Shown: in pieces, positions 4,949-56,651 of the stretch
Layout of the letters: each line of letters opens with the position of its first letter
Numbering within the stretch: position 1 is the first letter of the stretch
DNA from: a virus
Taxonomy: Duplodnaviria; Heunggongvirae; Uroviricota; Caudoviricetes
IMG/VR virus record: IMGVR_UViG_3300026549_000060
Span: 1 to 64,000 of that record
Strand: one strand, 5' to 3'
DNA: 64,000 bases
Notes under the pieces: model-generated
Told to the model about the DNA's origin: nothing
The model's database searches: none
Seen by the model: the letters and a program-made list of their open reading frames with translations, nothing else
Position numbers and translations under genes: made by a program

Positions 4949-5005
4949 CCAACTGAAAATGACGTGGTAAAATATTAGCTAATGATGGAAGGAGGTAGAC
5001 TTCGT

Positions 5006-5368: not shown

Positions 5369-5512
5369 ATGGACTATTTAAGTATGTTTTTAAAGTTTTT
5401 TATTAGCTCTTTTGGGATAGTATTAGGTGGTTTATGCGCAACTATCCTAGTTTTAAAATGCGTAGATTGGTTTTGTCTATATTTAAACTATCGGGATAAG
5501 AGGTAAGCTACA

Positions 5513-5818: not shown

Positions 5819-5829
5819 GGAGGAAAAAA

Positions 5830-6393: not shown

Positions 6394-6394
6394 T

Positions 6395-6742: not shown

Positions 6743-6745
6743 AAT

Positions 6746-7291
6746 ATGAATGACACTGAATCAACTGCATACTGGGTACCTCCTGCTGTAGGAGACTGTA
6801 CTTATGCAATACAAATTAATGATGAATATAAATCAGCGTTAAAAAAAGATTTTACCTGTAATGAAGAATTCAAAGCGTATAAAGAGTATGTTGATACTAG
6901 ATTAAGTAATCTAAAAGAGGCTATCAATAACCTTCGGTTTTCTAGTTCTAAAGATCATAATAAAGGAGAAATTCATATGATGAAAAAGATTAAACCTGTG
7001 TTGGTATATGGTTTTGCTATCTTTGGTCTGTTTACAGCTGTTAATAATGCAATTCTTATTCCATACAAAGATGATATTTCAAAAGCATATACTTATCTGT
7101 CTGAGTCATTTACAGTAAACTTCCTTGGTGTAAAATATCATTCTGAAAACTGGAATACGTATTCTCCTAAACTTAAGGCTAAGGTCTGGGAAAATCTTAA
7201 CACAGAGGATCGGATTAAGCTTACTGATAAACTTAATACTTATGCTCAGAAAAGCCACGAACTTAGCGATTTTGAAAAGACCTTTAAATAA
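6746..7291 (+). CDS. hypothetical membrane protein
   Basis: ORF with an internal hydrophobic segment. Confidence 0.4.
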   Translation: MNDTESTAYWVPPAVGDCTYAIQINDEYKSALKKDFTCNEEFKAYKEYVDTRLSNLKEAINNLRFSSSKDHNKGEIHMMKKIKPVLVYGFAIFGLFTAVNNAILIPYKDDISKAYTYLSESFTVNFLGVKYHSENWNTYSPKLKAKVWENLNTEDRIKLTDKLNTYAQKSHELSDFEKTFK

Positions 7292-23869: not shown

Positions 23870-25561
23870 TTAAATATCAGTATCTTCAAGTCTTTCTTCA
23901 AACTTACTAACATTTTCATACTTATCCACAGAGATATCTACATTATTAATAACTTTAGGGTTAACTACTTCGTTAGGATAGTTCAGCATTCTGTAAGTAG
24001 GATAGTCAATATATACTGGGAATTTAACATTATCCTGGCCCATTCTGTTTTTATCAATAATACAATAGACAGGTTCAATAGTATCTAAAGTGTTCTTAAA
24101 CTGATCATGTTCATCATAGAAGTCTTTATCAATTTTTTCTTCAGAGAATTCTTCTTGAACACTCAGATCAGTTTCTTCTTTAGACTTAAAGTTAAAGATA
24201 GCGAAAAAGTCAACATTTTCTCTTTTTCTAATTGACCCAGCAATATTTCCACCATTCATATTAAATTCAGAACTATTACCTTTACCCTTATTCTTATAAG
24301 TATCTCTGTTAAGCTGAGTAACCGTTACAATAGGAATATTAAGGCTAATAGATAGGGATTTAAGTTCATCTACAATATAGCCTAAATCCCTCCATTCTTG
24401 ATCTGATTTAGAAGCATTTACAGCAGACATTTTATCTGCATAATCTACAAACAGAATATCTACTTTAGTACCAGTACTTCTTTCAATATCGGTAATAATG
24501 GTTTGGATATCATAGATATCAATACTTTTAGCAGGTCTATAAGTAATATTAATTCTAGTATTATCTGGATTAAAGACTTCTTTAATCTGATAATCATACT
24601 CTTCTTTAGTAAGAACTTTATTATTAAAGTTGTTCTCAATTTCAACAATAGATTGACCTAAAGCACAACATACAAATCTATCACCAGTCTCTTTAGTACT
24701 ATTTTCAAGAGATACATAAAGTACTGTATGCTTATTAGAATCCTCTTTATATTTTTCATCAAGAAACAACTTAGCTCTATAAGCAAAATTAACTAGTACT
24801 AGAGATTTTCCTCCACCTGAAATTCCACCAAACATATAAATTCTTTGATTCTGGAATCCACCCTGAAGGATCTTATCAAACATCTTATAACCAGTACTAA
24901 TCTTAGTTACTTCATTGTTATTAGTAATAAGGTCTGTAATAGTTACTGTAGACAAATCTAATGAATTAGCGGCATCATAAGTGTAAGACTGAACATCAAG
25001 TAAAGCATTTCCTAAAATAGTATGGAGTTTAGTAACAAGTTCATTCCAAGAATTACATTCAAGATATCCATTATTAATAAATTTCTTCAATAGCTCAATT
25101 TGCCCCAAAGCATTGAACATACATTTCTTATTAGAAAAACTTGTTTGAATTTCATTAACTACATCAAGAATAAGTTCTTCTTGTTTAGCAATAGATAACG
25201 CTTTATTTTTATCTTCAATAGATAGTTCAACATCATTATCAATAAAAGCCTTATACTTCTCTAAAGCAATATCTCCATCAATTACTTTATTATTTAGTGT
25301 AAATGATTTAGAGATGTAGGTAAGCATCTTCTGTTGAAGTTTATCCAAAGAAATAAATTCAACATATTGCTGAGATTGCTTATTTTTTACCTTATCAATA
25401 AAGGTCTTAAATTCTTTACACAGATATGATGCAGATTTAATTACTAGAGGATCATTCTTTTTACCAAAAACTAATCTGGAATATACCGAAAGAAACTCTT
25501 CACCCATAAATTCCTTATCTTTATCCAAAATCTCCCTAAGTTGTACTAACATACTATCCAT
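23870..25561 (-). CDS. DnaB-like replicative DNA helicase
   Basis: ISTGYKMFDKILQGGFQNQRIYMFGGISGGGKSLVLVNFA (Walker A) followed by VLYVSLENS (the SLEM-like motif). Confidence 0.65.
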   Translation of the reverse strand: MDSMLVQLREILDKDKEFMGEEFLSVYSRLVFGKKNDPLVIKSASYLCKEFKTFIDKVKNKQSQQYVEFISLDKLQQKMLTYISKSFTLNNKVIDGDIALEKYKAFIDNDVELSIEDKNKALSIAKQEELILDVVNEIQTSFSNKKCMFNALGQIELLKKFINNGYLECNSWNELVTKLHTILGNALLDVQSYTYDAANSLDLSTVTITDLITNNNEVTKISTGYKMFDKILQGGFQNQRIYMFGGISGGGKSLVLVNFAYRAKLFLDEKYKEDSNKHTVLYVSLENSTKETGDRFVCCALGQSIVEIENNFNNKVLTKEEYDYQIKEVFNPDNTRINITYRPAKSIDIYDIQTIITDIERSTGTKVDILFVDYADKMSAVNASKSDQEWRDLGYIVDELKSLSISLNIPIVTVTQLNRDTYKNKGKGNSSEFNMNGGNIAGSIRKRENVDFFAIFNFKSKEETDLSVQEEFSEEKIDKDFYDEHDQFKNTLDTIEPVYCIIDKNRMGQDNVKFPVYIDYPTYRMLNYPNEVVNPKVINNVDISVDKYENVSKFEERLEDTDI

Positions 25562-26864: not shown

Positions 26865-27860
26865 CTACCAACCTATATCATTAGGATCATCAACTTTAAT
26901 CCCAAAGATATCACAAAAATTAGAAATACGATCATCAACTGCAAATTCTTGCATTTTATTATAATTAATTCTAAACTTAGTTAAATCTAATGTACCATTA
27001 GTAGGAATAGTAATACAATCTAACTTACCTTCTTTACCCATTGTACCAGATCGAACTAAATCTGTCAAGCGTCTTTGTGTATCTGAATCAAATTGACCTA
27101 TATCAATTTCTTCCAAGTCAAATCTATAGCCTCTATCCATTACTCTAAAGGTACTTCCATAAATTGCATTATATACCAACATAGATTTAACTGATCTTGG
27201 CAGTCTATCTTGGGCATAGTTTTCTTTATTCCAAGAACTTGGAATAGCACAATAAACTGTACCTGTTTTTAACTGCTCAACATATCTACCTCTATAATCA
27301 TCAATCTTAGTGGTAAGCTCTTCTTTACTGATTCCTTTCTTAAGGATATGCTCAATAAAATCATTTAACATATCTCTGCTAAATTGAGGATAATCAGATC
27401 TTACAACTTCTATACCACTAATACTGATTTTATCCAAAGGCTTTCCTTCTTTGGAAACTAACCAAATAGCATACTTCTTTTTGATTTCCAGAAACAAAGC
27501 TCTTCTAATAACAAGTTCCTGTTTAAAATTAAAGTTAAACTTTTTAGCCGAAGATTCTGTAGGAGATGTATTATGCATATTAAGAAGTTCATGAATCATT
27601 ACATTATTAATATACTGTGCTACAGATTCATTCAATTCAATAACTTTATCTATCTTTTCCTTGTCAGAAATTTCATCATAATCTTTTCCATAAATTGCTT
27701 TCAATGCATCGCCATATTTAGTAAAAATTGAATCTGTATTATGAACTAATATGTCATTTGCAAAAAAACAATGATCATCATCTGGCATTTCAATATCATA
27801 TACATCAATAGGTTCTTCTGGAGTAATCACTTCTATTGATTTAACACTCTCTATCTTCAT
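26865..27860 (-). CDS. Family-B DNA polymerase C-terminal fragment, beginning with a C-terminal split-intein half (IntC about 41 aa; 27738..27860)
   Basis: MKIESVKSIEVITPEEPIDVYDIEMPDDDHCFFANDILVHN is an intein block F/G ending in HN. It is followed by TDSIFTKYGD..., the C-extein that continues pol motif C (YGD|TDS). Confidence 0.8.
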   Translation of the reverse strand: MKIESVKSIEVITPEEPIDVYDIEMPDDDHCFFANDILVHNTDSIFTKYGDALKAIYGKDYDEISDKEKIDKVIELNESVAQYINNVMIHELLNMHNTSPTESSAKKFNFNFKQELVIRRALFLEIKKKYAIWLVSKEGKPLDKISISGIEVVRSDYPQFSRDMLNDFIEHILKKGISKEELTTKIDDYRGRYVEQLKTGTVYCAIPSSWNKENYAQDRLPRSVKSMLVYNAIYGSTFRVMDRGYRFDLEEIDIGQFDSDTQRRLTDLVRSGTMGKEGKLDCITIPTNGTLDLTKFRINYNKMQEFAVDDRISNFCDIFGIKVDDPNDIGW

Positions 27861-28751: not shown

Positions 28752-30236
28752 TTATTTAGGGAATTTAGAATACTTTAGACCTTCAATTACGTCTTTAACT
28801 CTCATCCTAACTGGATGAAATGGATGGTATCCAACCCAACTAAAATCTGGAATTGCTTTTCTCATAATACCCATAGCGCCATTTACATCAGCATTCACCA
28901 ACTTTCCAACCCCAGAAGAAAACAATCCTCTGTGAATTCTTTTACCAAAGTTAGCCTCATCTCTAGTTTCAGGGTCTTCTTTAGTAGCCAAGGGAGCATT
29001 TCTAAGATGATCTGTTTTACTAGTATAAGACTCTTCAACAATCTCGAAGCTTATGCCCCTCATTTTACACTTATATTCGAGTTTGTCAAGTAGTTTTTTA
29101 AAAGGAAAGTTAACAATAATTTGATTATTTTTATGCCCAGTATTGATCTTCTGCTTCATATCTTTATTCCAACCGCAAATAACTCTACAAATATTATAAT
29201 GGAGGCAATATCTAACAATATACTTAGTATATGCATCAACGATATAATTTATACGATTAATATGATTCTTTGTCATTGCTTCAATTCTCTTAGTAGTATA
29301 CTGCTTAGGTCTTTTCTTCCCATTTTCATCAGTAATAACTTCAATCTTATGTTTAAGTTTATCTACCATTAAATGATAAAATCTAATTTTAGATTTCAAA
29401 GCATTACCATCAAGGATAACTGGATTAAGTTTATCATCACTAGTAATTATAGTACAAAAATTTCTAATACCCAAATCAATACTAAGATATCGTTTATTAT
29501 CAAGTTTAGGAACCGATTCATTATACGTATAAATTATTTCAATCTTAAAATATCCTTTTTTAGGAATTATCCTAACTTGGTCAATTCTTTTTCCTTTTAC
29601 ATACTCCGAATTATGTGGCAATTTTTGAAGTGGGATATAAATGCTTTTATTATATCCATCCGTTCCCCTCGGCTTAGGAAACACAAGACTTCTAGTTTTT
29701 GAGTTAATTTTAATAGAAGTACCAGAAAAGTATAATGGGCACAGATCTCCTTTTTTATAAAAACCGGGCTTTCTTGGCATTCCTTTATATTTTTCCGGGT
29801 GCCTACTCCAATCCCCAAGGGATCTTCCATATGATTTTAAATTTTTAGATAGTAATGTTCTAATTACCTCTGTAGTTGCATCTCTACCTACAAGATTTTT
29901 AAGTAGTTCCCAATTACTTTTACCCTCAAGATTTTTAGTATAATACTCACCGTTCTCATCTTGTTCACTGGCATATCTCCTCAAACTCATTACTTTAAAA
30001 AAATCATCGACAGGTTTTTCAAAACCAACGTATTCGTCTGGAAACCAAGGAAAAGACTTACCAGTTTCTTTTTTATATTGTTCTCTAACCGGGTCATAAG
30101 CTTCTTTAAACTCATAAGCATAGTACAGTGTCTGATTATACAAATTCTTAGCAACAGTACATGCTTCTACAAGCCAATCATATACTTCTTCATTTCCAGG
30201 TCTTCTATAAAAGTTAAAACTAGCAGTAAGTTGCAT
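28752..30236 (-). CDS. TnpB/Cas12-like RuvC nuclease (494 aa), the CRISPR-associated effector candidate
   Basis: RuvC-I LSIDLGIRNFCTI, RuvC-II ISFEIVEESYTSKT and RuvC-III NADVNGAMGIMRKA, with a TnpB-like WED region (KGKRIDQVRIIPKKGYFKIEI). No cysteines between RuvC-II and RuvC-III. RBS gaggggg. Confidence 0.8.
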   Translation of the reverse strand: MQLTASFNFYRRPGNEEVYDWLVEACTVAKNLYNQTLYYAYEFKEAYDPVREQYKKETGKSFPWFPDEYVGFEKPVDDFFKVMSLRRYASEQDENGEYYTKNLEGKSNWELLKNLVGRDATTEVIRTLLSKNLKSYGRSLGDWSRHPEKYKGMPRKPGFYKKGDLCPLYFSGTSIKINSKTRSLVFPKPRGTDGYNKSIYIPLQKLPHNSEYVKGKRIDQVRIIPKKGYFKIEIIYTYNESVPKLDNKRYLSIDLGIRNFCTIITSDDKLNPVILDGNALKSKIRFYHLMVDKLKHKIEVITDENGKKRPKQYTTKRIEAMTKNHINRINYIVDAYTKYIVRYCLHYNICRVICGWNKDMKQKINTGHKNNQIIVNFPFKKLLDKLEYKCKMRGISFEIVEESYTSKTDHLRNAPLATKEDPETRDEANFGKRIHRGLFSSGVGKLVNADVNGAMGIMRKAIPDFSWVGYHPFHPVRMRVKDVIEGLKYSKFPK

Positions 30237-35693: not shown

Positions 35694-38273
35694 TTATAAG
35701 GTGATTAGTTGGTCTGTTACAACTAATTCTGTTGGTTTAATTATAGTTTTAACATTATTTCTCATTACTACCAAACTATGATCTTCAGTTACAGTGACTG
35801 TTTTTCCAGATTCAGTAGTAATCTTATACAGTTTCTTATTAGTTTTATGCTTCATCAGATACCTTGGGAAATAAAGTCTGTCATCATATCCAAGTACGCA
35901 TTTATTAGGATTCTGAATATAATTTTTTCCGAGATAATGCCACACTTTATTATCCGAAGCACACATATCCCAAAGTTCTTTAATAGTTATATTACCTTTA
36001 CCAGTTCTGATTAAAGAATCTCCAGTAACTGAATCTCCATAAATTACATTTGGTAGAGCTTGTTCTGATTGGTAATCCCAATCAAAAGGAATATCTACAT
36101 GGTCAAATTTATTAGATTTATTTTGAATCATTTGATTAATGCAATTATTAGCAACTACTGCGGCGATTTTAGCAATTTCTCTACCAGTAGAAGTAATACT
36201 TCTGGCAACCTCATAATCATACAATCTGAATCTAATATTGGACTGACCACCATAAAGAGAATTAGTAATGATCTTAACTGTTTTCTGCATAGTATCATAT
36301 CTGTCAACTAGCATTTGGTCTTTACCAATATTATCCTTCATAAGATCTTTATACTCTTTTCTCTTTTTAATGAGCATATCTACAATATCATAAAGAACTG
36401 ACTGCTTATCTTCATGCTTCTTAAAGATAGTGCCAATCTGGGTAATAATATACCCATTCTTAAGCATTCTTTCATGAAAACTTTTAGCAGACAATTTATA
36501 CAATCTCTCAATACCTTGAACTTTCAAATACAAACTTACATCTGTATTGGAATTAACAAATTCTTCTTTATTAAAGATATATTGTCTAGCAGTATCTGTA
36601 TCAACTTTTCCTACATAGGTATCTGCACTAATGTTATATCTTGCCATAATGTATGGATAAAGAGAAGTAAGATCCAAATCACCCAACCAATCATGTACAC
36701 CGCTAATTGGTTCTCTAACATAAGCACCCGCAAACTTTTTCTTCTCAATTCCAGCTTTAACAATTTTGGCTACTTTATCTCTATCCATAAGATACTCATA
36801 AAGAATCCCATCACAAATATGTAGAGTAGTATAAATACTATCCCATGAGATATTAGCCAACTGGACTATACTAAAATTAAGGTCAATATACTTCAACTTT
36901 TCATCCAATTTTCTTACAAGATGAACGTCGTTAATATTGTATGCAATAAACCTTTCAGGTTCTTCCCTAAAGATTTTATCCATGCCATCTTCAGTATCAA
37001 GTTTAGTAATACCCAACTCAATTTTAGAAATAGTTCCAAGCTTATAATTCTCTTTTTTACCAAGAGTTCTTTCCTTATAGCATCTTTGATAATCAAGTGC
37101 TACAGAATAACCAATATGAGGAATACAATAAGTAACTTCCTCTTCATGTTTATTCATAACTGTTTTATATTCAATTTCAAAAGTTTTATTATGAGCCAGT
37201 TTAGGATGTTCAATTCCTAAAAATTCTGCTCTATACTTAATATAAGGTAAATCAAATTCATCACTATTCCACCCAGATACTAGATCTGGATCAAATTCTT
37301 TCAATAAACTGAAGAACTTAAGGAACATATCACTTTCTTTATCAAAGATTTCTACATTGAAAATACACTCATCTTTGTAATCAAGATATTCCTTAATTTG
37401 TTCAGTATTAATTTTAGCTTTGTTTAAATTATAGACCAAAGTATAATATTTGTCAGTATAATTATCATACAAAGTAATCAAGTTAACGGGAATAACTCTA
37501 GCTGACTTCTTAATATCAGCAAAGTCAATAATACCATATCCTTCTTGATACAACTCAATATCAACATAATTTACTCTAAGTTTATAATGACCAAGATTAT
37601 CTTTGTTTTCTTTTTTCCAAAGATAATTCTTATGAATAGCCAAATTAAAATCTACATTATAAATAGCTTTATAAGAAGATTCTGACTGAATTTGTTCAAT
37701 AATGTATTTTCTTTTACCATAATGTACCAGTTCACCTTTTAATCCTGCAATATCATGAACATCTAAATAATCATCTTTACCGGTATACATCATAACCATA
37801 TCATCAGTCTGAGTAATATATCTTTTATCACCAACTCTAATAACATATGCAAATTCCTTATTCACATAGTCTGAATAGAAGTTAAACAGCATAGGCTTAG
37901 AATACCCATCAGTTGGCTTAGAATCTTCTTTCTCTTTAGAGCTATACAATTTATATTTACTCTTTTTATTAATAACTACATCAGTTTCTTTCTTTTTAGG
38001 TTTTTCTTCAATTTTGGGAAACACGGGTTTAACAGGAATATAATTAAACTTATAAATAGTGTTATACTTCTTATGTACTTTAGCAATATCTTCAATAGAA
38101 TACTTATACGCATAAGGATTATTGAAAAGCTGATTCAATACAATAGATGTTTCAAAATCTTCTTCAGCTAAACTTAAAATAGAGGAAATCTTAAGAGACT
38201 TACATTCCTCTGGAAATGGCACATTTCCTTCAGTAGCTAACCATCTTATATATGTAGTTAGTGGTGAAGCCAT
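35694..38273 (-). CDS. Family-B DNA polymerase N-terminal fragment (3'-5' exonuclease and polymerase motifs A, B and the YGD of C), ending in an N-terminal split-intein half (IntN about 112 aa; 35697..36032)
   Basis: Motifs YVDIE, YNINDVHL, GAYVREP, DLTSLYPY (motif A) and KIITNSLYG (motif B), then ...NVIYGD|SVTGDSLIRTGKG (intein block A) ... TVTEDHSLVV (block B TxxH) and a stop. Confidence 0.85.
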   Translation of the reverse strand: MASPLTTYIRWLATEGNVPFPEECKSLKISSILSLAEEDFETSIVLNQLFNNPYAYKYSIEDIAKVHKKYNTIYKFNYIPVKPVFPKIEEKPKKKETDVVINKKSKYKLYSSKEKEDSKPTDGYSKPMLFNFYSDYVNKEFAYVIRVGDKRYITQTDDMVMMYTGKDDYLDVHDIAGLKGELVHYGKRKYIIEQIQSESSYKAIYNVDFNLAIHKNYLWKKENKDNLGHYKLRVNYVDIELYQEGYGIIDFADIKKSARVIPVNLITLYDNYTDKYYTLVYNLNKAKINTEQIKEYLDYKDECIFNVEIFDKESDMFLKFFSLLKEFDPDLVSGWNSDEFDLPYIKYRAEFLGIEHPKLAHNKTFEIEYKTVMNKHEEEVTYCIPHIGYSVALDYQRCYKERTLGKKENYKLGTISKIELGITKLDTEDGMDKIFREEPERFIAYNINDVHLVRKLDEKLKYIDLNFSIVQLANISWDSIYTTLHICDGILYEYLMDRDKVAKIVKAGIEKKKFAGAYVREPISGVHDWLGDLDLTSLYPYIMARYNISADTYVGKVDTDTARQYIFNKEEFVNSNTDVSLYLKVQGIERLYKLSAKSFHERMLKNGYIITQIGTIFKKHEDKQSVLYDIVDMLIKKRKEYKDLMKDNIGKDQMLVDRYDTMQKTVKIITNSLYGGQSNIRFRLYDYEVARSITSTGREIAKIAAVVANNCINQMIQNKSNKFDHVDIPFDWDYQSEQALPNVIYGDSVTGDSLIRTGKGNITIKELWDMCASDNKVWHYLGKNYIQNPNKCVLGYDDRLYFPRYLMKHKTNKKLYKITTESGKTVTVTEDHSLVVMRNNVKTIIKPTELVVTDQLITL

Positions 38274-46157: not shown

Positions 46158-46235
46158 TGGTCGGGTATGGAGGATTTGAACCTCCGACCCTCTGCTCCCA
46201 AAGCAGATACGCTAACCAGACTGCGCTAATACCCG
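46158..46235 (-). tRNA. tRNA-Pro (anticodon TGG), CCA encoded
   Basis: Manual fold: acceptor cgggtat/atacccg, anticodon stem tctgc/gcaga, loop tttggga, T-arm ggagg-ttcaaat-cctcc. Confidence 0.75.
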
Positions 46236-46240
46236 TTTAG

Positions 46241-46777
46241 TTACTCTTTAAAATACAAATCCCCAGTTTTATCTCCATCAATCTTATGCAGAAATACCCA
46301 ATCTAAAAACTCACAAGCAGTAGATCTTTCTTCTTCAGAACAATCACTACCATTAATATACTCATCAAACCATTTATAAAACAGTTTCTTTCTATTGAAA
46401 GTTGCATTAATACAACTACTAAGCATATCCAAGTCAATATCTTTAAGATCTGTTTTACCGGCGTTTTTCATTACAGCTTCAATAGTTTCCCTGATAGCCT
46501 TAACATTTTCTGGCTGATAATAACGTTCGGCATTATTAGTCACATTTTCACATTTATTTATAGTCATATTCATATTTGTTATCCCACTTTCTTTATATTG
46601 GTAATAATGATTGGGATACTTAAAGACCAAAACTCTAGCTTTATAGGGAGAGGTTTGATCTCTATCCCAATAAACTAGTTCCATTTCTAAAAGCTTTCTA
46701 GCTTCAAATGGAGTAATCTTGACACTATCTTTTTTAAACTCTGAATCAAATAACTTAATTGTTTTCTCCATACTCAT
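46241..46777 (-). CDS. hypothetical protein
   Basis: ORF. Confidence 0.45.
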   Translation of the reverse strand: MSMEKTIKLFDSEFKKDSVKITPFEARKLLEMELVYWDRDQTSPYKARVLVFKYPNHYYQYKESGITNMNMTINKCENVTNNAERYYQPENVKAIRETIEAVMKNAGKTDLKDIDLDMLSSCINATFNRKKLFYKWFDEYINGSDCSEEERSTACEFLDWVFLHKIDGDKTGDLYFKE

Positions 46778-47078
46778 TATGGGTAGTCTCCTTTATATAA
46801 GGGTGATTGTCTCTGCTTTTTTAATCAAGAAAAAACAGGTCAAAAAGAAAAGGTTTGAGGGGAATTTCACCCCTCTGAGAGGTATTAAATTTTAAACTAA
46901 AAAGCCATAGGAATATACGCAGCTTTATAAGTCTGTTGCTTAGTTGATCAGTATCTAAGCTATCTGGAAGATGCGAAGACCTATGGTTAATTCTTTAAAA
47001 GGCTATAGGAATATCAGTACTCAAATGATCAGTTTAAGTAGTCTATCTGATAGACCTATAGTCAATGCTTATCTATTA

Positions 47079-47687
47079 TTAGGGCCACTCACCAAGAGGC
47101 TGTCCAAGAAGACCCTGCTGAGGAACCCCTTCAAGAATCTCCTTGAATTCAATCTTATCGTAATTGGAATACACACTGATAAGAACAACCCTGTTAGGAT
47201 TACCCTTAGTCATAGCCTCAGGAGAAAGCACCATCTCTGTTTCACCAGCAAAGACGTACTTCACACCATTGACAACCTGTGTACCAATAAGTGCAAAAAC
47301 TGAAACATTACTACCAACAAATCCAGCAAGATTATCCTCAAGAACCTTCATGGCCTCTTCAGGAATATCAGTAGTAGGATTAATCTGAACCCCACCCATC
47401 TTACCAGAGTCAGACAGGACATTGGTAATCTCCACAATACTGAACTTATCATCCTTCTCATTAAGAACAATAAGAACCACATTATGAACATCATTTCCAG
47501 TAATCATGGTCTGTGTAGCAAGAATAGCATGATTAACTCCAGAAACAACCTTACTACCAAGGTATGCAATCACATTATACTCAGCACCAACCATATTACC
47601 AAAAATCTCTGTAAATGCGGAAGCAACCTTCTGAGGAAGCTTACCGGGAACAACATGAATCTCATAACTACCCAACATAAATATCAT
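47079..47687 (-). CDS. hypothetical protein with two internal repeats of an approximately 85-aa domain, in a GC-elevated (about 42%) region
   Basis: Repeated ...AFTEIFGNMVGAEYNVIAYLGSKVVSGVNHA... / ...EDNLAGFVGSNVSVFALIGTQVVNGVKYV... Confidence 0.45.
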   Translation of the reverse strand: MIFMLGSYEIHVVPGKLPQKVASAFTEIFGNMVGAEYNVIAYLGSKVVSGVNHAILATQTMITGNDVHNVVLIVLNEKDDKFSIVEITNVLSDSGKMGGVQINPTTDIPEEAMKVLEDNLAGFVGSNVSVFALIGTQVVNGVKYVFAGETEMVLSPEAMTKGNPNRVVLISVYSNYDKIEFKEILEGVPQQGLLGQPLGEWP

Positions 47688-48207
47688 ATCCTTTCTTATT
47701 TATTTTTATCAAAAATAAAAGCTTTTATCAACATTACAATTATAAAAATTATAACTACGTATTGTATATATGGCAATAACTTTATTGAACTATCAAATAC
47801 TCCTGATAACCAGGAAAAGAATACATCAAACATACAATGTATGCACTACCAAGTTATGTTTAGTAGTATCTACTTTCTGTGGATAAGGATCTTCATTATT
47901 CTTAAATCTCTGATACTGAAGATCTTTATACTCCTTCTTCTTCACCATTGTTCTAGTACCTGTACTGTCTTCTGTAAAATACCATTCAGTCATGTTATAC
48001 ATCAATCCTTTCTTAAGGCATATCAACTTCGTCTACATAAAGAACAATTTCCTCATTACCATAGCTATCACCAGTTGCTGAAATACTTGATTCATCATAA
48101 AGTTGCTGAACTGAATCAAAATAGCTCTCAGAAACCTCAACTCTATGCCCTTCATCAGTTTTAAGATAGTATTTAGCAGACATATTAACTACACCCTTTC
48201 TTTTCTT

Positions 48208-49044
48208 TTATGTTACTGTAAATGTTTTTGAAATATCGTATTGTTCGTTCTGCCACCACGCATCCATTCCTACTCGAAAGTCTATACGGACTGTATGTTC
48301 ACCAACATCACTTACAGAGGCAGGGTCTGGAGCTGTCCAACTTCCAGAAGCAGTTAAACTATTATAAGTCTGAGAATATACCCGATTTTCATCATAGTAT
48401 AAAGTTATAGAATTAAGTTGATATCTAGTTTGTTGAACTGTATACGGAACAAAATCCCATTCAACATATGCACTTTCACCAACCGATATATTATTAACCC
48501 TTAACACCATACCCTTGTATCTGCCTTCACCTTCTCTATACGAAATATCAACGGTCCTTACGTTATCATTGTTGTCTTCTCTAACATAGGTGTTAAACAA
48601 ATCTATTATACGATTATAACAGCTATCTGCCGGTCTACTTGATAAATAAATACTATAAAATGAATCTTCACCATAATCATAATAGGTTAAAGTTTCTCCG
48701 TCATAATTAAATGTTTGATCGATATATGGAAAATAAATAGAAAAAGAGCCTAAATGGGCTATGTCAGGATCAGAGCAATATGCTCTTAGTTCAAACCATC
48801 CCATATCGGGAGGAGTATTATAATAAGGATCGTCTCCATTGCCATATGTACCGTAAGCTGACGCAGCTGGTTTACCAATTAAACGATCATTTATAACTAA
48901 AACAATTTTAAATTTTTCAGATTTATTTTTAATAACAAACCCAACACTAATAGTCGAATCATAAGTTTGTGCTTCCGCAAAGGTCATTCTGTATATCTTA
49001 TACTCATCTTTCCCCCCATTCAACAAAAGAGGTTTTGTAAACAT
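48208..49044 (-). CDS. hypothetical protein
   Basis: ORF. Confidence 0.45.
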   Translation of the reverse strand: MFTKPLLLNGGKDEYKIYRMTFAEAQTYDSTISVGFVIKNKSEKFKIVLVINDRLIGKPAASAYGTYGNGDDPYYNTPPDMGWFELRAYCSDPDIAHLGSFSIYFPYIDQTFNYDGETLTYYDYGEDSFYSIYLSSRPADSCYNRIIDLFNTYVREDNNDNVRTVDISYREGEGRYKGMVLRVNNISVGESAYVEWDFVPYTVQQTRYQLNSITLYYDENRVYSQTYNSLTASGSWTAPDPASVSDVGEHTVRIDFRVGMDAWWQNEQYDISKTFTVT

Positions 49045-49113
49045 TGATAAACACTCCTTTTATAAGTTTTATATTTGTAAGAACTAGGTAAACTAGTTTA
49101 AAAGTCAAAGGTA

Positions 49114-49189
49114 TGGTGGACTCGCTGGGGTATGATCCCAGAACCTGGCGATTATAAGTCGCCTACTCTACCAATTGAGCTACAAGTCC
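49114..49189 (-). tRNA. tRNA-Ile (anticodon TAT), CCA encoded, with a non-canonical T-loop
   Basis: Acceptor ggacttg/cgagtcc, anticodon stem ggcga/tcgcc, loop cttataa, T-stem ctggg/cccag with loop atcatac (A54/T58 covariation). Confidence 0.65.
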
Positions 49190-49198
49190 ATGTAATAA

Positions 49199-49285
49199 TG
49201 GTGCCCAGGGGGGGACTCGAACCCCCACGCCAGAGATGGCAAGGGATTTTAAGTCCCTTGTGTCTACCTATTCCACCACCTGGGC
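49199..49285 (-). tRNA. tRNA-Leu (anticodon TAA), class II long variable arm, CCA encoded
   Basis: Anticodon stem aggga/tccct, loop cttaaaa, variable arm gccatctctggcgt, T-loop ttcgagt. Confidence 0.7.
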
Positions 49286-49307
49286 ATTTAACTATTTTTA
49301 TATTTTA

Positions 49308-49384
49308 TGGAGCCCCTAGGAAAAGAGTTGAACTTCCATCACTTCTTTACAAGAGAAGTATAATAGCCGTTATACTATAGGGGC
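49308..49384 (-). tRNA. tRNA-like gene, possibly tRNA-Thr (TGT) or a pseudo-tRNA
   Basis: Acceptor gccccta/taggggc plus tCCA. Anticodon stem cttct/agaag with loop cttgtaa. The T-arm is irregular (ggaag-ttcaact-cttttcc, with G-U pairs or extra bases). Confidence 0.4.
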
Positions 49385-49553
49385 AAATAAATCTTATTTG
49401 TAGTCTACATCACTCAAAAGATTTAGGAAAGTTCTATACTATATTTTACTTCTGATTAACAGAGAGTGCTCCATCCTTAGCTATAGTATAGATAGATGGT
49501 TAAAAGGTGTAGATCTTTCAATAACTACTTACTGAAGACCTTTATCCAGGAAA

Positions 49554-49582
49554 ATTATATCAGCAGTATAGTTATTTGTCAA
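49554..49582 (-). promoter_or_regulatory. sigma70-type promoter (TTGACA-N17-TATAAT) driving the tRNA cluster
   Basis: Minus strand: tacTTGACAaataactatactgctgaTATAAT. Confidence 0.55.
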
Positions 49583-50043
49583 GTACAAAACTGACTCACT
49601 TATTTATATGATCTACATGACCCTAAGAATAGGTCATTTGTGTAGTACTTTCGATGACTTTAATGGGCGTAATATATGTACTACAATCCTTTTCCCCTTT
49701 CAATCAAAGGATGACAGTTTCTTACCACTTGCAGTAACCTGACAACTCTCCGGAATCCTCCACTCAACACTGCTCTAGCTTCTACTAAAGGTGGCTCAAC
49801 ATTAAGTTTCATAGGATAACTACTACCTCAAGTGTAGTAGGTTCTAACAGTTTTTATAAAGTCTATCCCTTAGCCAAGGTAATTTTTATTGAGGGTTACA
49901 TTCCCTAATAGACTTCTATCCTACTTATGCCAAATGAAGACATTACAATCTTCTAAGTAGATCAGCCTTTATTTACTGTTATTTCCCAAGCACTGATTTG
50001 GGTGAAAGGATTTTAATTGTAACTCATTTTAGGTTACAATTTA

Positions 50044-50117
50044 ATTTTTAATGGCTCCTCCTGGTGGTTACGCTCCACCGTATACGGTTTAACAGACCGC
50101 CACTCTACTATTGAGTT
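50044..50117 (-). tRNA. tRNA-Asn (anticodon GTT), CCA encoded, with a non-canonical T-loop
   Basis: Acceptor tcctcct/aggagga, D-arm actc/gagt, anticodon stem gcggt/accgt with loop ctgttaa, T-stem ggtgg/ccacc with loop agcgtaa (A54/T58). Confidence 0.55.
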
Positions 50118-50133
50118 AAGGAGGAATTAGAAC

Positions 50134-50228
50134 TGGCTCTGGAGCCCCGATTCGAACGAGGATGAGAAAGGAGGTCCCTTTACTTACTGATCCAAAGTCA
50201 GCTGTTTTTCCAATTAAACTACTCCAGA
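50134..50228 (-). tRNA. tRNA-like gene with a Gln anticodon (TTG) and an unusually long (about 24-nt) variable region, CCA encoded
   Basis: Acceptor tctggag/ctccaga + g + cca. D-arm gttt/aaac. Anticodon stem gctga/tcagt with loop ctttgga. T-arm cctcg-ttcgaat-cgggg. The 95-nt length is atypical. Confidence 0.45.
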
Positions 50229-50372
50229 GTTAAATTATCAAGGGTTCACTTAAGACTCGCACTTAAGATCTTCAGCTTTCACATTTTCCTAATTATGCTC
50301 TAGAAGCATACATAGAAAACACTACTCAGTGAGATTTTGCTATTTAAACTATGAACCATGTCCAACAAAGAT

Positions 50373-50401
50373 ATTAAAGCATACTGACAAGAATTTGTCA
50401 A
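50373..50401 (-). promoter_or_regulatory. sigma70-type promoter (TTGACA-N17-TTTAAT) upstream of the Gln-like and Asn tRNAs
   Basis: Minus strand: cTTGACAaattcttgtcagtatgcTTTAAT. Confidence 0.4.
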
Positions 50402-51093
50402 GAGGTGATTTTAAAAATTTTATGGCAGGTCCACTACCGCTTGCAGATAGTTCTGAAGTTTTGGAGACTCCTGTTTTACTACATAAACTATGGACCCATC
50501 AATATTTGTTCAAAAAATTTTAGGTGTGGAGAGAAGTAATGAGGTACTCCTCCCCACTTCAAAGGAGAACGATCATGAGCGGAAAAATATATAGATACTT
50601 GATAGCTGTGAGGTATGTTCAGACTCAGACTCTGTTTAAATAGTACAGACCTTTATTCACAGATTTACATAATAATTACCAGCTACTTACTATTAGCGAA
50701 CGAGTTTACGTTATATTAAAGCTAATGTGATTTCACTAAGTAAATCTTAAGTGAGGTTCGACCAAGCCTCTTCATAGGGTCTAACTACTAAATCAACAAT
50801 ACTAACTACTCCCTACTCAGTAAAGTCTTACTCAATCCAAGATAAAATAGTCATCAATCAAAGACTATTATTTGAAATTAGATGTAAGGCTTTCTAGTCT
50901 CAGGAAAATTGAGAGAAAAGCATTGTTATTATATCGTCACATTTCAGGTGTGAAAATATAATTAGATAACTTTGCGGTCATCTAAATATTAGGAGAGTAT
51001 CTTTCTTATTTTTACATGAATAAGATACTCAGAAAATCATGAAACAGAGTATTTAGAACTTTCACCAAGTATCAAATCTTTAAGTACTAAAAC

Positions 51094-51762
51094 TTAGTAC
51101 TCAATTTCAATAGTGGTAGTTGCGTTAGAAACCTGAAGTGCTGAATCAACATTGAGTTCAAACTGATCAATCTCAATACTAAGAGCGTTAATCTTCTTAT
51201 TAATATCAATAGGATCAATAAGAACTGGCTGATTCTCCATATTGTACTTTTTCTTAAAGGCCATGATAGCATCTGTATTGATATTGGTTTTATCCTTATT
51301 ACCATACAGGGTCTCAATGGTTTTTTCAAGTCTCTGTTCAGCTTTTTTAGTATCCTCTTCAAGCTGACTCTGTGCAAACTGAAGCTGAGTCTGAAGAGTA
51401 TTAAGAAGCATTTTCTTAGTCTTAAGCCCATACTTCATCTGATAAATTGCTTCAGCAACAGTCATTTCCTTACCACCAACATTAATGATGGTTTCAGCAT
51501 TAGACTTACTGATAGCAGCTTTAATAGCATCAACTCTTCTAATCAGATCAGTAACTGCCTGATAATTACTGCTTACCTTAGAACTAAAATCCTGAATTGA
51601 CATTCCATCAATTCTAAAATTATCATTAGTAGGATTATTATTTACAGCCACATACCTATTGCTAAAACTAGTGTACTGCATAATTTTCTTATCTGCAAGT
51701 TTGACCTCACAAAGCGCCTTATGAATAGTCATCTTCTCAGTAGTCATTGCTTCAACCTCCAA
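51094..51762 (-). CDS. hypothetical coiled-coil protein
   Basis: ORF. Confidence 0.45.
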   Translation of the reverse strand: MEVEAMTTEKMTIHKALCEVKLADKKIMQYTSFSNRYVAVNNNPTNDNFRIDGMSIQDFSSKVSSNYQAVTDLIRRVDAIKAAISKSNAETIINVGGKEMTVAEAIYQMKYGLKTKKMLLNTLQTQLQFAQSQLEEDTKKAEQRLEKTIETLYGNKDKTNINTDAIMAFKKKYNMENQPVLIDPIDINKKINALSIEIDQFELNVDSALQVSNATTTIEIEY

Positions 51763-51770
51763 ATAATAGT

Positions 51771-51912
51771 TTTTACTTAACTCTCTTAAAATAAACTACA
51801 ACACCAGCAATAATAACAAGCAAAGCTACAAGAACTGCACTGGAAGTAATAGGATTAGCAGCTACAGTATTCTTAGCAGCGGTAAGCCAAGTAAACGCAT
51901 AATTCAACATGT
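51771..51912 (-). CDS. small hydrophobic (TM) protein, about 43 aa, not in the supplied ORF track
   Basis: RBS aggagg followed by an ATG. MLNYAFTWLTAAKNTVAANPITSSAVLVALLVIIAGVVVYFKRVK. Confidence 0.4.
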
Positions 51913-51971
51913 TTAAATTCCTCCTCATAATAAATACTAAGTCTATAAACTCTTACTAATACTACTTTAGT

Positions 51972-52058
51972 AAGTTTAGGACAGAGGGCAGGAGACTCGA
52001 ACTCCCAATACCTTTTCAGGTATGCCTGTTTTCAAGACAGGTTCCTTAACCAATTTGG
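51972..52058 (-). tRNA. tRNA-Ser (anticodon TGA), class II; CCA not encoded
   Basis: Acceptor agagggt/gccctct, anticodon stem cctgt/acagg with loop cttgaaa, variable arm atacc/ggtat, T-loop ttcgagt. Confidence 0.7.
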
Positions 52059-52164
52059 ATAACCCTCTATATTAGGGGGAGTAGAATGTAACCAAGACCT
52101 CCCCATTTTAGGAGATTACATTTTTAAATATTATACTTCTCCCACCAGTCACATTCTAATAATG

Positions 52165-53214: not shown

Positions 53215-53341
53215 ATGCTATTGCTAAAGCTAAAATTGGAGATAACAGTACTATAAAAAATACTGAAAATAGTCCAAAGATTACCTTATAGATATGCATA
53301 CCAATAAAGTTTTTAACGATTGTCATATGGGAAAACCTCAA
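53126..53341 (-). CDS. hypothetical small TM protein
   Basis: Hydrophobic ORF. Confidence 0.35.
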   Translation of the reverse strand: MRFSHMTIVKNFIGMHIYKVIFGLFSVFFIVLLSPILALAIAYVLFGDSRYLEYINPNTNGLFEEEEGDQD

Positions 53342-54746
53342 CTAACTTACTCCTAAGAGCTAAATATTTTTCATTATCTAATAAGGCATTATTTTTGATA
53401 CCTTTTACTTTAAGCTTATCTAATTCAGTTTGATTATTAAATCTAATAGGCATATTCTCTAATGTGAAACCTAACTTAGCAAATCTAGTATACAGCTCTT
53501 TACATTCATCACATTCACCACAAAGAGTATAATTGCCAAACGTATCTCTATGAAAGTGCTCACATTTAGATTTAAACTTCATAAAGGGTATATTCAAATA
53601 TAACCCTAATAGCAATATCTCTTCAGATTGAAGATTCTTAAATACTGGGGTATAGGTAGAACCTTTATTAAATCTGGTTAAATGAGTATATAAATCAATC
53701 TCATCTAAATCGTTAGTATAGTCAATATAGTTTACTTTAAACTGATGAAAAAGAGGGTTTAATAAGTGCTCTTTTAATAATGGTGCATTTACAATATTAA
53801 AAGTATCTATATTGAATGATTCCGTTAATAATGTAAATTCATCTTCACCTATACAATTATAGTCATTGATATTAATCTTGATCGGATGATAAAGTTCATT
53901 AACTAAATATGGTAAAATAAAAGATTCTATACTGCCATCATAATTACAAGTTAAAACATACTTATTATTAATACTAATTGGATCATCAATATAGATTTGT
54001 TTAAAAGCAAATCTACCATCGATCTTAATAGTATAAACTGTCCTGTTTTCAATATTAGAAGAGCTATTTAATTGATACTCTGTAGATGGTATATTATCGG
54101 AACTAATGAATATAGATTGGTCATCTATATGAACATAACTAGTTCTATTACTGTTAAATAGATAAATGTTATTGGCAGGTGCTTCATATAAAACTATTGA
54201 AAAGTTACCAGTAGTATTCTTCAGTACTTCTTCTAAGCCCATTAAAATATTATTTCTATGAGCTTGAATGTACATATCCAATTGATCTAATAAAGTTTTT
54301 ATATCAACTTCTTTAAATTGATCAGAATTTCTATGAGCCTGAATGTACATATCTAATTGATCTAAAGACTTTATATCAACTTCTTCAAATCGATCAGAGG
54401 CAATTTTTTGTTTAGGAATGCCACTTACTAATAGATATAAAATATTATCTTTATTAACTAAATTGGATTCGTTAGTATTATTAGCTCCAATTAAAACGGT
54501 ATTCCTAAAGAAACTGTTATTCGATGATCTGTTAATAAGATTATACATATCACCTTTAATCTTGATAATATCATTACCTAATTTGTTTAAGCTATTAACA
54601 ACCAGATTAACGTTATTACCAGTATTAACTATTGAACTAAATAAAGTTTTAAAAGTAGATTTATTAGAACTAAGATCTGTATTGAATAAATGTACTAATA
54701 AAAAACTGGATCTTTTAGTATCCATCACTGTAATCCTCCATAACAT
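53313..54746 (-). CDS. hypothetical protein (477 aa) with an in-frame 75-bp tandem duplication and a C-terminal Cys/His zinc-ribbon-like motif
   Basis: EVDIKSLDQLDMYIQAHRN repeated (DNA about 54253-54397). C-terminal CEHFHRD...CGECDECKELY. Confidence 0.45.
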   Translation of the reverse strand: MLWRITVMDTKRSSFLLVHLFNTDLSSNKSTFKTLFSSIVNTGNNVNLVVNSLNKLGNDIIKIKGDMYNLINRSSNNSFFRNTVLIGANNTNESNLVNKDNILYLLVSGIPKQKIASDRFEEVDIKSLDQLDMYIQAHRNSDQFKEVDIKTLLDQLDMYIQAHRNNILMGLEEVLKNTTGNFSIVLYEAPANNIYLFNSNRTSYVHIDDQSIFISSDNIPSTEYQLNSSSNIENRTVYTIKIDGRFAFKQIYIDDPISINNKYVLTCNYDGSIESFILPYLVNELYHPIKININDYNCIGEDEFTLLTESFNIDTFNIVNAPLLKEHLLNPLFHQFKVNYIDYTNDLDEIDLYTHLTRFNKGSTYTPVFKNLQSEEILLLGLYLNIPFMKFKSKCEHFHRDTFGNYTLCGECDECKELYTRFAKLGFTLENMPIRFNNQTELDKLKVKGIKNNALLDNEKYLALRSKLVEVFPYDNR

Positions 54747-54969: not shown

Positions 54970-55326
54970 TTAATGCGCAACTAATAACCCAGATTTGGTA
55001 GCTGCGGAGGATGTAGCTACTGTTAAACCTGTGGTAGCTTGGATATACTCATTTAAGATACCCTGATCAATATCTTTTTCATCTATAGACCAGCCAATTT
55101 GATTTTTATAAATTTTAACTGGTGCATCTGTACTACTCAATGCGCTGCTTAACATAAACGGGACAATTGCAGCTGCTAACCCTTGAGGTGTAGGCTGTTT
55201 CATAAATGTCTTCAGCTTTTTCATAATATAAAATTCTGAAGTTTCATCTATGACCGTGCCTAAATGCTCATCTGTCCCTTGGGCATAACCGAATAAAAGC
55301 TTGTATTCTTGCATGTGTAAATACAC
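54970..55326 (-). CDS. hypothetical protein
   Basis: ORF. The promoter family member at 55361-55389 lies upstream. Confidence 0.45.
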   Translation of the reverse strand: MYLHMQEYKLLFGYAQGTDEHLGTVIDETSEFYIMKKLKTFMKQPTPQGLAAAIVPFMLSSALSSTDAPVKIYKNQIGWSIDEKDIDQGILNEYIQATTGLTVATSSAATKSGLLVAH

Positions 55327-55588
55327 ACTCCTTATTTTTAAAATCTTAGTTTCTGGTTATATTAAAGCATAACTAAAATATTTTGTCAAGTATAAAATTA
55401 ATTTTTCGAAGAAAATTATAAGAATTAAATTTTTTCAGCTGGGTCAATTCAGTGGGTTTACCCCCAAATCAGATTTTTGACCTTTTGAATAAAATTTTAT
55501 ATTTGATTTTAAAAGTCTTTGCTGAAGCTTGTTCTTTTATCAGAATTTAATTTTGTTTTGCTTAATAAAAATTTAGCTTTCAGTAATC

Positions 55589-55616
55589 ATTTTACATAAC
55601 TCTTTCATTTTGTCAA
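55589..55616 (-). promoter_or_regulatory. sigma70-type promoter (TTGACA-N16-TAAAAT) reading leftward from the origin region
   Basis: Minus strand: cTTGACAaaatgaaagagttatgTAAAAT. Confidence 0.4.
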
Positions 55617-55784
55617 GAGGGTAAAATTTAAGTCCTTGGTAATTATTTATTAGGTTTTAACTTGAAAAAAAAAAAATAATAGTTTAACTTTCAGTAAGAG
55701 AGTAAGGAGTCGTCGTCTTGAAAAGACGACTCCTTACTCTCTATTATTATATATTTTTTTATAGTAGTAGGGAAATGGTAAAAC

Positions 55785-56175
55785 GGTGGATAACTCTCTT
55801 TTGAAAGTTATGTGCTACGATGGTTGCGTTTTTGTTACTAAACATAAACGGTGGATAACTCTGTGGATAACTCTGTGGATAACCTATTTTTAGGTTGCAT
55901 GGGTCATAAAATATAATATTTTATATCATATACTATAAAACATGGCTTAAGCCATTGAGAATACTGAGGTAGCGTAATATTGCCTGAATATTCTGTGAAT
56001 GCAGCGTTATAGTTTACATTGTGGATAACTTTTGACTGAATTGTATGCATCTGTAATTTTTAGATTAAAACTAGTTTAAAGATATTAGTATACATTAAAT
56101 AAGTTTAAATTATAGATAGTTAAATATAAAAACTGTTTGAGGCGGTTGTGGATATGTGGATAAGTATGTGGATAA
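55785..56175 (+). promoter_or_regulatory. Cluster of eight co-oriented DnaA boxes (TGTGGATAA and 1-mismatch variants): a candidate oriC-like replication origin at the strand-switch point
   Basis: Boxes at 55785, 55850, 55862, 55874, 56020, 56147, 56155 and 56167. Flanked by AT-rich DNA and by an 18-bp hairpin at 55699-55744. Gene orientation diverges on either side. Confidence 0.65.
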
Positions 56176-56303
56176 CTTGAGATGAAATTTGCATATATAT
56201 TATATAAGAGTCCTTTGTCTTTTATTAAAGACAGGGTTATTAAAATAACCTACTATTGTAGGATGATTTTATAAATATTCTTTCATACAAGGGAGTAGAT
56301 ATA

Positions 56304-56651
56304 ATGGATATGACAAAACTTAAAAAATTTTTGAAAAAAATGTTCCTTGCTTCCGATAGCATTATTCTTGACGGTGAAGAGTTCAAGGGTCATGAGCTGC
56401 TTCAGATGATGCAGCAGTTGTTTAAAATCGAAGGGTACTACGAGTTTCAGAATGGTAATTTGGGCCTCGTTGTGCTTAACGATTTTGACCGGGGGCATGG
56501 CATGCCTGTTCGAGCTATGCTTCAGTGGGCGGAGGGAGGAGTACTTCTTCCTGAGGAGGGGGAAAAGTACCTGAAAGAGTGGGAAGCGGAGAGGATTCGG
56601 AGGGCTTCGGGTGATGAGCCAATCACCTTGAAGGATTTTTTGAATAAGTAG
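56304..56651 (+). CDS. hypothetical protein (GC-elevated)
   Basis: RBS aagggag. About 45% GC. The overlapping minus-strand ORF 56283..56969 is judged spurious. Confidence 0.5.
   Translation: MDMTKLKKFLKKMFLASDSIILDGEEFKGHELLQMMQQLFKIEGYYEFQNGNLGLVVLNDFDRGHGMPVRAMLQWAEGGVLLPEEGEKYLKEWEAERIRRASGDEPITLKDFLNK

Follow-up and report, generated by a model that had tools for sequence, protein, structure and literature searches.

The tailed-phage record IMGVR_UViG_3300026549_000060 (IMG/VR; Caudoviricetes) was analysed over its first 64,000 nucleotides, a stretch referred to here as the window. It includes a gene-free region of 977 bp (55327–56303, 27% G+C) between a leftward open reading frame (ORF) of 118 aa and a rightward ORF of 115 aa. 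This region is probably a bidirectional replication origin of a jumbo phage, fired by host DnaA through a basal unwinding system (BUS) of the bacterial oriC type. The source is an uncultivated jumbo phage with a genome of ~288 kb; proteins of the window occur on contigs of up to 288,112 bp, and the sequence examined, i.e., the window plus ~9 kb of an identical contig that extends it, amounts to 73 kb of that length. An earlier note on the window had proposed an oriC-like, DnaA-dependent origin at a cluster of DnaA boxes. That proposal gains support from a feature absent from the note, a module in which DnaA-trios, a GC cluster and boxes stand beside an A/T-only tract and which is conserved in diverged relatives. 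From a hairpin rightward, the + strand carries the A/T-only tract, TAGTAGTAG, a 14-bp spacer and GGTGGATAAC, and this interval reads, in both order and orientation, as a bacterial BUS. The sequence elements, their order, orientation, spacing and conservation, and their identity to bacterial oriC modules are established.

Unwinding module and DnaA boxes

The BUS in the incC region of Bacillus subtilis oriC consists of DnaA-box 6/7, a GC cluster, DnaA-trios and an AT-rich 27-mer (Richardson 2016/2019, Pelliciari 2021/2023), and its experimental trio strand reads 5'-TAGTAGAAGTAATAGTAG-GGCC-TGTGGATT-TGTGGATAA (PMC8287927 supplement). Published search rules for a BUS ask for a box with at most two mismatches from TTATCCACA, a spacer no longer than 16 bp and three or more NAN trios of the consensus 3'-GAT-5' (PMC8287927). 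A second, less conserved tandem box is frequent (PMC8287927), and a tandem co-oriented box pair beside the trios is present in 57% of predicted BUS.

Judged by these rules, the region of the window holds five perfect boxes and three with one mismatch, the anchor box GGTGGATAA being among the latter. Three NAN trios, TAGTAGTAG, lie 5' of the box on the strand that reads TGTGGATAA. Their orientation agrees with that of the B. subtilis oligonucleotide oHM558 (TAGTAG...GGCC-TGTGGATT-TGTGGATAA; PMC8287927 supplement) and with G19/G20 after trio 1, since cryo-electron microscopy places A17 of trio 1 and then G19/G20 toward the duplex boxes (PMC10721633). The spacer measures 14 bp in the window and 12 bp in the relatives, as in B. 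subtilis, compared with a typical length of 10–13 bp. Beyond the trios lies a 22-bp A/T-only run, which is proposed to be the duplex-unwinding element. Within the spacer, AATGGTAAA (55774–55782) has four mismatches to the box consensus and aligns with the GGGC-TGTGGATA of the relatives; it corresponds to the trio-proximal member of the tandem pair, off register by 2–3 bp in the window and perfect or near-perfect, in an 8-bp register, in the relatives. At the anchor box, GTGGATAACT is invariant across all aligned lineages. The coordinates of these and other features are collected in Table 1.

The boxes are far denser here than chance would allow. Eight boxes of the TGTGGATAA type, all on the + strand, fall inside 55785–56175 (391 bp), so that the cluster of eight within ~400 bp described earlier is real, although its composition had been given as six perfect boxes and two with one mismatch. 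Five are perfect (starting at 55862, 55874, 56020, 56155 and 56167), and three carry one mismatch (GGTGGATAA at 55785 and 55850, TGTGGATAT at 56147). Over the 64-kb window, TGTGGATAA with up to one mismatch has 52 sites, with 25 expected. The shifted 9-mer GTGGATAAC has six perfect copies (0.36 expected), every one of them in this region on the + strand, and a count of six was reached in 0 of 100 shuffles.

Other places were considered as well. The right-hand tandem boxes (56147) do not form a second BUS, because no trios precede them. An isolated TAGTAG-N11-TGTGGATAA occurs at 47861–47886 (+) in a region of small ORFs; this loose BUS-like match is probably due to chance, as at least one such match appeared in 4 of 300 shuffles. 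The same probably applies to a lone perfect box at 23922 (−).

Table 1. Features of the intergenic region and its flanks, and corresponding modules of phage relatives and gut microviruses. Positions refer to the window unless another sequence is named; aa, amino acids.
Feature	Position	Strand	Sequence or basis
First leftward-arm gene	54970..55326	-	118 aa; ORF list
Weaker leftward promoter-like site	55361..55389	-	TTGACA, 17 nt, TTTAAT; read from the sequence, putative function
Inverted repeat GGTCAA...TTGACC	55442..55482	.	conserved; sequence comparison with relatives
Strong sigma-70-type leftward promoter-like site	55589..55616	-	TTGACA, 16 nt, TAAAAT; 11/12 matches, consensus scan
A12 run	55665..55676	+	left flank of hairpin
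Block TAATAG-N4-5-CTTTCAG	55677..55694	+	directly left of hairpin; invariant columns in six-sequence alignment
Hairpin/cruciform	55697..55742	.	arms 55697-55714 and 55725-55742; 18-bp stem, 100% complementary, 10-nt loop
A/T-only tract, 22 bp	55742..55763	.	longest such run in the intergenic region
Three DnaA-trios	55762..55770	+	TAGTAGTAG; 3'-GAT-5' on this strand, 5' of boxes
14-bp spacer	55771..55784	+	GGA, decayed trio-proximal box AATGGTAAA, AC
Anchor DnaA box of the unwinding module	55785..55793	+	GGTGGATAA, extended GTGGATAAC; GGTGGATAAC at 55785-55794
Distal cluster, three boxes, 12-bp spacing	55850..55882	+	GGTGGATAA, TGTGGATAA, TGTGGATAA; ~65 bp from anchor box
Conserved element before middle box	55984..56013	+	CTGAATATTCTG...TGCAGC..TATAGT; alignment
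Single perfect box	56020..56028	+	box search
Right-hand boxes, 8-bp and 12-bp register	56147..56175	+	TGTGGATAT, TGTGGATAA, TGTGGATAA; without adjacent trios
First rightward-arm gene	56304..56651	+	115 aa; ORF list
L143 module			TAGTAGTAGTAG-GGGC-TGTGGATA-TGTGGATAAC
L008 module			TAGTAGTAG-GGGC-TGTGGATA-AGTGGATAAC
L006 module			CAGTAGTAG-GGGC-GGTGGATA-AGTGGATAAC
L010 module			CAGTAATAG-AGGC-TGTGGATA-AGTGGATAAC
Microvirus L136 (KT264804.1)	1020-1160		TAGx5-GGGTGC-TGTGGAAA-TGTGGATAAC plus GTGGATAACTCTGTGGATAAC
Microvirus L142 (PQ006958.1)	380-520		TAAx5-GGTG-TGTGGATAAGTGGATAAC plus four more boxes
Microvirus L141 (KT264798.1)	2990-3230		TAGx5-GGGC, then many TGTTGAAAA repeats
Microvirus L140 (PQ006258.1)	3000-3056		five tandem perfect boxes right after the Rep gene, without trios

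Conservation in relatives and bacterial origins

The flanking proteins of 477 aa and 657 aa have homologs with 47–67% identity, which led to relatives of the region (L004, L005, L006, L008 and L143); L010 and L011 were added by a metagenome scan with the hairpin core. Six sequences of four lineages were compared: L143; L004 with L010 and L011; L006; and L008. Four other loci (L001–L003 and L137) are 100% identical to the window across the region and, therefore, carry no comparative information. The homologous non-coding regions have a mean column identity of 64%, and all relatives keep the same series, i.e., leftward TTGACA promoters, a GGTCA...TGACC repeat, a TAATAG...CTTTCAG block, the hairpin, an A/T tract of the ATTATTAT type at the same place, the module and a second box cluster. 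The module generally reads (TAG)n-GGGC-TGTGGATA-(A/T)GTGGATAAC in the relatives, and its 4-bp GC cluster, 8-bp box register and 12-bp spacer are those of B. subtilis. In L004, L005, L006 and L008, perfect boxes are confined to this intergenic region (4–18 kb of sequence each). The sample of one relative is labelled as a bovine metagenome. IMG/VR yielded no relative through either the 657-aa protein or the hairpin pattern, and no cultured phage gave a nucleotide match to the region except for a 35-nt box array in a microvirus.

The arrangement of the boxes around the module is partly shared and partly lineage-specific. All relatives have a box cluster 53–78 bp from the anchor box (65–67 bp in most). 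A third cluster ~235 bp from the anchor box is found in the window and in L004-type relatives, and the box at 56020 is retained in the latter and lost in L006 and L008. At the right-hand part, the boxes are reversed in five of the six relatives (L004, L010, L011, L006 and L008), and L143 has no box there. Hence, the co-orientation stressed in the earlier note applies to the window and L143, whereas both orientations occur in the other five. Likewise, the box cluster sits exactly at the switch of gene orientation in the window, but this is lineage-specific: a leftward gene of 188/194 aa lies right of the array, between origin and strand switch, in L006 and L008, and two leftward genes (176 and 1072 aa; ~4 kb) do so in L143. 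In these three relatives, the switch is 0.6–4 kb from the array, and array and BUS are retained beside the first left-arm gene. Origin linkage to the 118-aa leftward gene is kept in all relatives, and homologs of 106–116 aa flank the origin in L004, L006, L008 and L143; the right flank of the intergenic region differs among lineages.

A further reading, that the boxes are parts of a repeated promoter element, had been named in the note as one that would overturn its proposal, and it was rejected. No consistent −35/−10 geometry accompanies the boxes, and lineages in which no rightward operon begins here have kept the array. Indeed, the right-hand neighbor is transcribed toward the origin in L006, L008 and L143, so the array cannot be a rightward-promoter element there.

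The hairpin directly abuts the A/T-only tract and bounds it. Its 18-bp stem is perfect, as noted earlier, while the adjacent run put at A13 is in fact A12. As single-stranded DNA, the hairpin has folding energies of −20 and −19 kcal/mol on the two strands (z ~ −8). Its core, GGAGTCGTCGTCTT...AGACGACTCC, is single-copy in the window and invariant in the relatives, and the outer stem has five compensatory pairs. Since the core is invariant while the outer stem co-varies, these patterns suggest that the hairpin is recognized by sequence in addition to structure. Regarded as a terminator, it has a strong stem, but the T and A runs of the window begin 8–20 nt past the stem and a terminator scan made no call; in L006, A6 and T7 runs abut the stem and are clearly terminator-like. 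An Rfam search of the region returned no known RNA family and only sub-threshold hairpin matches.

Among bacteria, the pattern TAG-N5-GTGGATAAGTGGATAA was found at no fewer than 120 loci from many phyla, and those listed include Chloroflexota, Poribacteria, Lachnospiraceae, Veillonella, Bacillales, Listeria, Balneolales and Bdellovibrionota. At nearly all listed bacterial loci, repeated TAG or TAA trios and an AT-rich tract precede the string, and in 59 of the 120 listed the fetched 8 kb include a DnaA gene, mostly 100–600 bp away. Given these features, the string marks real oriCs. Metagenome-assembled genomes of gut Lachnospira and Roseburia (29–35% G+C) carry exactly TAGTAGTAGGGGCTGTGGATAAGTGGATAAC. 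In IMG/VR, the pattern occurs in just 4 of 2.9 million viral contigs, three of which are high-GC.

Compared with the B. subtilis BUS, the phage region shares the element order, the strand orientation, the TAG trios, the adjacent AT-rich tract and the extra distal box clusters, and its relatives also share the 4-bp GC cluster and the 8-bp tandem-box register. Yet, several differences are present. The phage copy lacks adjacent dnaA/dnaN, and this linkage, an ancestral but not universal arrangement, was absent from the window, the close loci and the 9-kb extension. In the window, the proximal box is lost and the spacer is 14 bp. In addition, an invariant hairpin abuts the AT tract, and phage promoters and replisome genes flank the region. 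The BUS papers make no mention of phage origins.

Other replicons and phages resemble the region in part. The mobile replicons P1 oriR, pSC101, F and R6K recruit host DnaA via consensus boxes, as the phage region might, but they are opened by their own Rep/iteron systems with DnaA as a helper, and we know of no trio module described in their origins. In contrast, the phage region shows no visible Rep/iteron system and contains the chromosomal unwinding module itself. The E. coli datA locus and similar loci are dense clusters of consensus boxes outside the chromosomal oriC that titrate or regulate DnaA; the phage region is also such a cluster, but titration loci do not need trios beside an AT-rich tract, which the phage region has. 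For megaphage G, a very large phage of a Firmicute, Ori-Finder 2022 output lists DnaA boxes, a spacer and a trio at the genome start (PMC12484599). Both cases are computational claims of an oriC-like region with boxes and trios, although the former is default software output without comparative support and the present one is conserved across lineages and was checked against the experimental B. subtilis scaffold and bacterial oriCs. Finally, about 30% of huge phages show a bidirectional-type skew (Al-Shayeb 2020, PMC7162821), and divergent arms with a skew minimum at an intergenic region are common to those phages and the window. Their origins were, however, derived from skew and coverage only, with no initiator-binding architecture described.

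Proposed initiation by host DnaA and rival explanations

In agreement with the earlier note, a dnaA gene was not detected: a tblastn search of the window and close loci with E. coli DnaA gave no homolog (best E = 2.6), and no called gene of the 9-kb right extension matched a DnaA Pfam. The conserved neighbor of 477 aa (53313–54746, −) has no Pfam or PHROG match. Its structural model, with a predicted local distance difference test score (pLDDT) of 72, is that of an enzyme with an Ntn-glutaminase and a PP-loop ATPase domain, resembling asparagine synthetase (AsnB), beta-lactam synthetase or QueC. This AsnB/QueC-like two-domain model rules it out as the initiator, and the protein may instead be a nucleotide- or DNA-modification enzyme. 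The 657-aa neighbor gave a low-confidence model (pLDDT 58) without a significant fold match, and sequence searches of the PDB with the neighboring proteins found no match. Host DnaA is, therefore, the simplest initiator, given that the 73 kb hold no DnaA homolog and that the 477-aa neighbor is not an initiator.

We infer the following course of events, from the binding of DnaA to the role of the hairpin. Host DnaA would bind the anchor box at 55785 and the distal clusters 65, 235 and 360–380 bp rightward, the latter raising the local DnaA concentration. An ATP-DnaA oligomer would then grow leftward, starting at the anchor box, over the TAG trios of the + strand (55762–55770) and melt the adjacent A/T-only tract. 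Onto the opened strands, the phage DnaB-like helicase, single-stranded-DNA-binding protein (SSB), family-B DNA polymerase (PolB) and clamp loader, which are encoded in both arms, would be loaded for bidirectional replication. The hairpin that bounds the melted tract might act as a bidirectional terminator and so shield this tract from the leftward promoters, or might serve as a phage-specific site for priming or helicase loading.

Several points weigh against this proposal. All of its support comes from sequence. The module of the window is the least canonical of all, with a decayed proximal box, a spacer of 14 bp instead of 12 bp and three trios only, and the L004-type relatives have just two NAN trios (in L004 and L011, two TAG repeats). 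Similarity to the 120 bacterial and four IMG/VR loci is confined to a module of 40–70 nt and does not identify a host. Cumulative G−C, which the earlier note had suggested as a check, has its minimum over the 73 kb at 55345. This position agrees with an origin here, but the skew tracks the coding strand: a + strand block inside the left arm (3217–7291) has a positive GC skew, like its coding strand. Thus, the minimum is consistent with an origin without being independent evidence. Furthermore, T4-like replication sets that contain a UvsX-like recombinase can depend mostly on initiation by recombination, and with 73 of ~288 kb covered, a phage DnaA or another origin is possible in the rest.

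The last of these points underlies the explanation that the BUS origin is fired, independently of host DnaA, by a phage-encoded DnaA homolog or an initiator with a DnaA-like domain located in the other ~215 kb. Inspection covered the window and 9 kb only, huge phages carry large replication gene sets, and several origin-adjacent proteins have no recognizable function. We nevertheless regard it as improbable, because both replication modules flank the origin and still no DnaA-like sequence occurs in the 73 kb, and because boxes and trios have exactly the sequences seen in ordinary bacterial oriCs, so that host DnaA would bind in any case. The region might also not be an origin but a DnaA-responsive control element of early divergent operons or a datA-like DnaA sink, with replication starting elsewhere or by recombination. 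This is unlikely, since boxes alone suffice for titration or for an operator and a module of trios, GC cluster and tandem boxes by an A/T tract in seven sequences would be left unexplained; moreover, the array is retained where no rightward operon begins beside it. Still, DnaA is also an established transcription factor, promoter-like sites are found within and beside the array, the 56020 box comes after a conserved TATAGT element, and a UvsX-like recombinase is encoded.

Much less credible than either is an origin whose repeats serve as iterons of an unrelated phage Rep and resemble DnaA boxes by coincidence, with the TAG repeats and hairpin incidental and the hairpin a plain terminator. The three direct repeats GTGGATAACTCT at 12-bp spacing do look iteron-like, and the A-run, hairpin and T-rich flank look terminator-like. 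However, the repeat core is the DnaA consensus in five of the eight copies, and no Rep-like gene or protein was recognized among the neighbors. The full trio-GGGC-tandem-box string of the relatives is base-for-base that of bacterial oriCs, and an invariant hairpin core with a co-varying outer stem implies more constraint than a plain terminator needs. Initiation by host DnaA at a captured BUS accordingly stays the preferred explanation of the region.

If it is correct, replication of the phage would depend on the DnaA-ATP cycle of the host and so be coupled to the host growth state, and competition with the host oriC for DnaA is predicted. Being short and defined, the DNA of the module could be used directly as a scaffold in published strand-separation assays. 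It could also serve as a host-range marker, since DnaA-box variants are lineage-specific.

Microviruses, gene context and minor observations

BUS-like modules were also observed in the non-coding region of gut Microviridae, single-stranded DNA phages of ~4.4–5.6 kb (Table 1). The TGTTGAAAA repeats of microvirus L141 may be a variant box. A literature search combining DnaA boxes with Microviridae gave nothing relevant among the top-ranked results. To our knowledge, the replication origins of huge phages have so far been deduced only from skew or coverage. It is conceivable, though we put it below an even chance, that capture of a complete chromosomal BUS, with trios, GC cluster and tandem boxes, is a general strategy of phages that has not been described before, adopted by a family of rumen/gut jumbo phages and, separately, by several gut Microviridae. 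Host DnaA would melt the viral origin, and lineage-specific additions, such as the invariant GTC-rich hairpin at the melted-tract edge in the jumbo phages, would pass the bubble to viral replication proteins; the boxes of one microvirus would have been retuned to the TGTTGAAAA variant. Occurrence of the module in gut microviruses would bring single-stranded DNA phages under this idea.

The two arms of the window were described earlier as a minus-strand left and a plus-strand right replichore. Minus-strand ORFs indeed occupy 7353–55326 and plus-strand ORFs run from 56304 to the window end, and a further 9.2 kb on the identical contig; yet the short + block at 3217–7291 breaks up the left arm. 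This block, with a G+C of 0.375 overall and 0.45 at 3–5 kb, includes a thymidylate-kinase-like ORF and could have arisen later by insertion or inversion. The left-arm genes include those for PolB, two helicases, a DnaB-like helicase, SSB and thymidylate synthase (ThyA), as well as a methyltransferase, a tail-fibre protein, a virion protein and seven or eight tRNAs. The DnaB-like helicase already recognized in the note is at 23870–25561 (phrog_19, E = 2.4e-44), and the polymerase shares only 24–31% identity with its counterparts in cultured phages. On the right arm, the window contains a gene for a Cas4-like nuclease, and the 9.2-kb extension adds genes for a clamp-loader subunit, a 5'-3' exonuclease, a metallophosphatase, a PD-(D/E)XK nuclease and a RecA/UvsX-like protein. 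The phage-plasmid-like lifestyle at which the note had hinted finds no backing in these genes: partition, plasmid Rep or integrase genes were not recognized among the larger window ORFs scanned, nor partition, plasmid Rep or other maintenance genes in the 9-kb extension.

On the left side of the intergenic region, the −35 cTTGACAa of the weaker leftward promoter-like site is kept in the relatives, and the L004 equivalent of the strong site reads TTGACA-N17-TAAAAT. The inverted repeat at 55442–55482 changes its inner stem compensatorily by lineage (TGGG/CCCA in the window, TTGGATG/CATCCAA in L004). Flanked by the two leftward promoters, it may be an operator or a structured leader RNA of the left operon, outside the origin core. 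Upstream of the promoter-proximal leftward promoter, the relatives conserve a palindrome centred on TTCGAA (55405–55410; TTCTTCGAAGAA in L004), which may bind a dimeric regulator. On the right side, the element at 55984–56013, CTGAATATTC(T/A)G-N4-TGCAGC-N2-TATAGT, stays conserved even in lineages that lost the middle box, and it forms a perfect 12-bp palindrome in L006 and L143. A G+C-rich, structured-looking stretch is found just right of the origin in L010 (5560–5900).

Some observations concern the window at large. Its minus-strand tRNA cluster (46158–52069) includes a tRNA with a CTA anticodon, i.e., an amber suppressor (50242–50335), that adjoins a similarly long tRNA-Gln(TTG). This pairing suggests that TAG may be recoded to Gln in some part of the genome; within the window, 11 of the 80 long reading frames still end in TAG. 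Near the tRNA region of the relatives, a HEARO RNA (L004, 11780–12005) and a group I intron (L006, 15549–15792) were noted. In the minus-strand stretches 26865–27860 and 28752–30236, a second polymerase-like ORF, distinct from the full-length PolB at 35694–38273, resembles only the C-terminal part of a family-B polymerase and has a transposase-like ORF (phrog_506) nearby.

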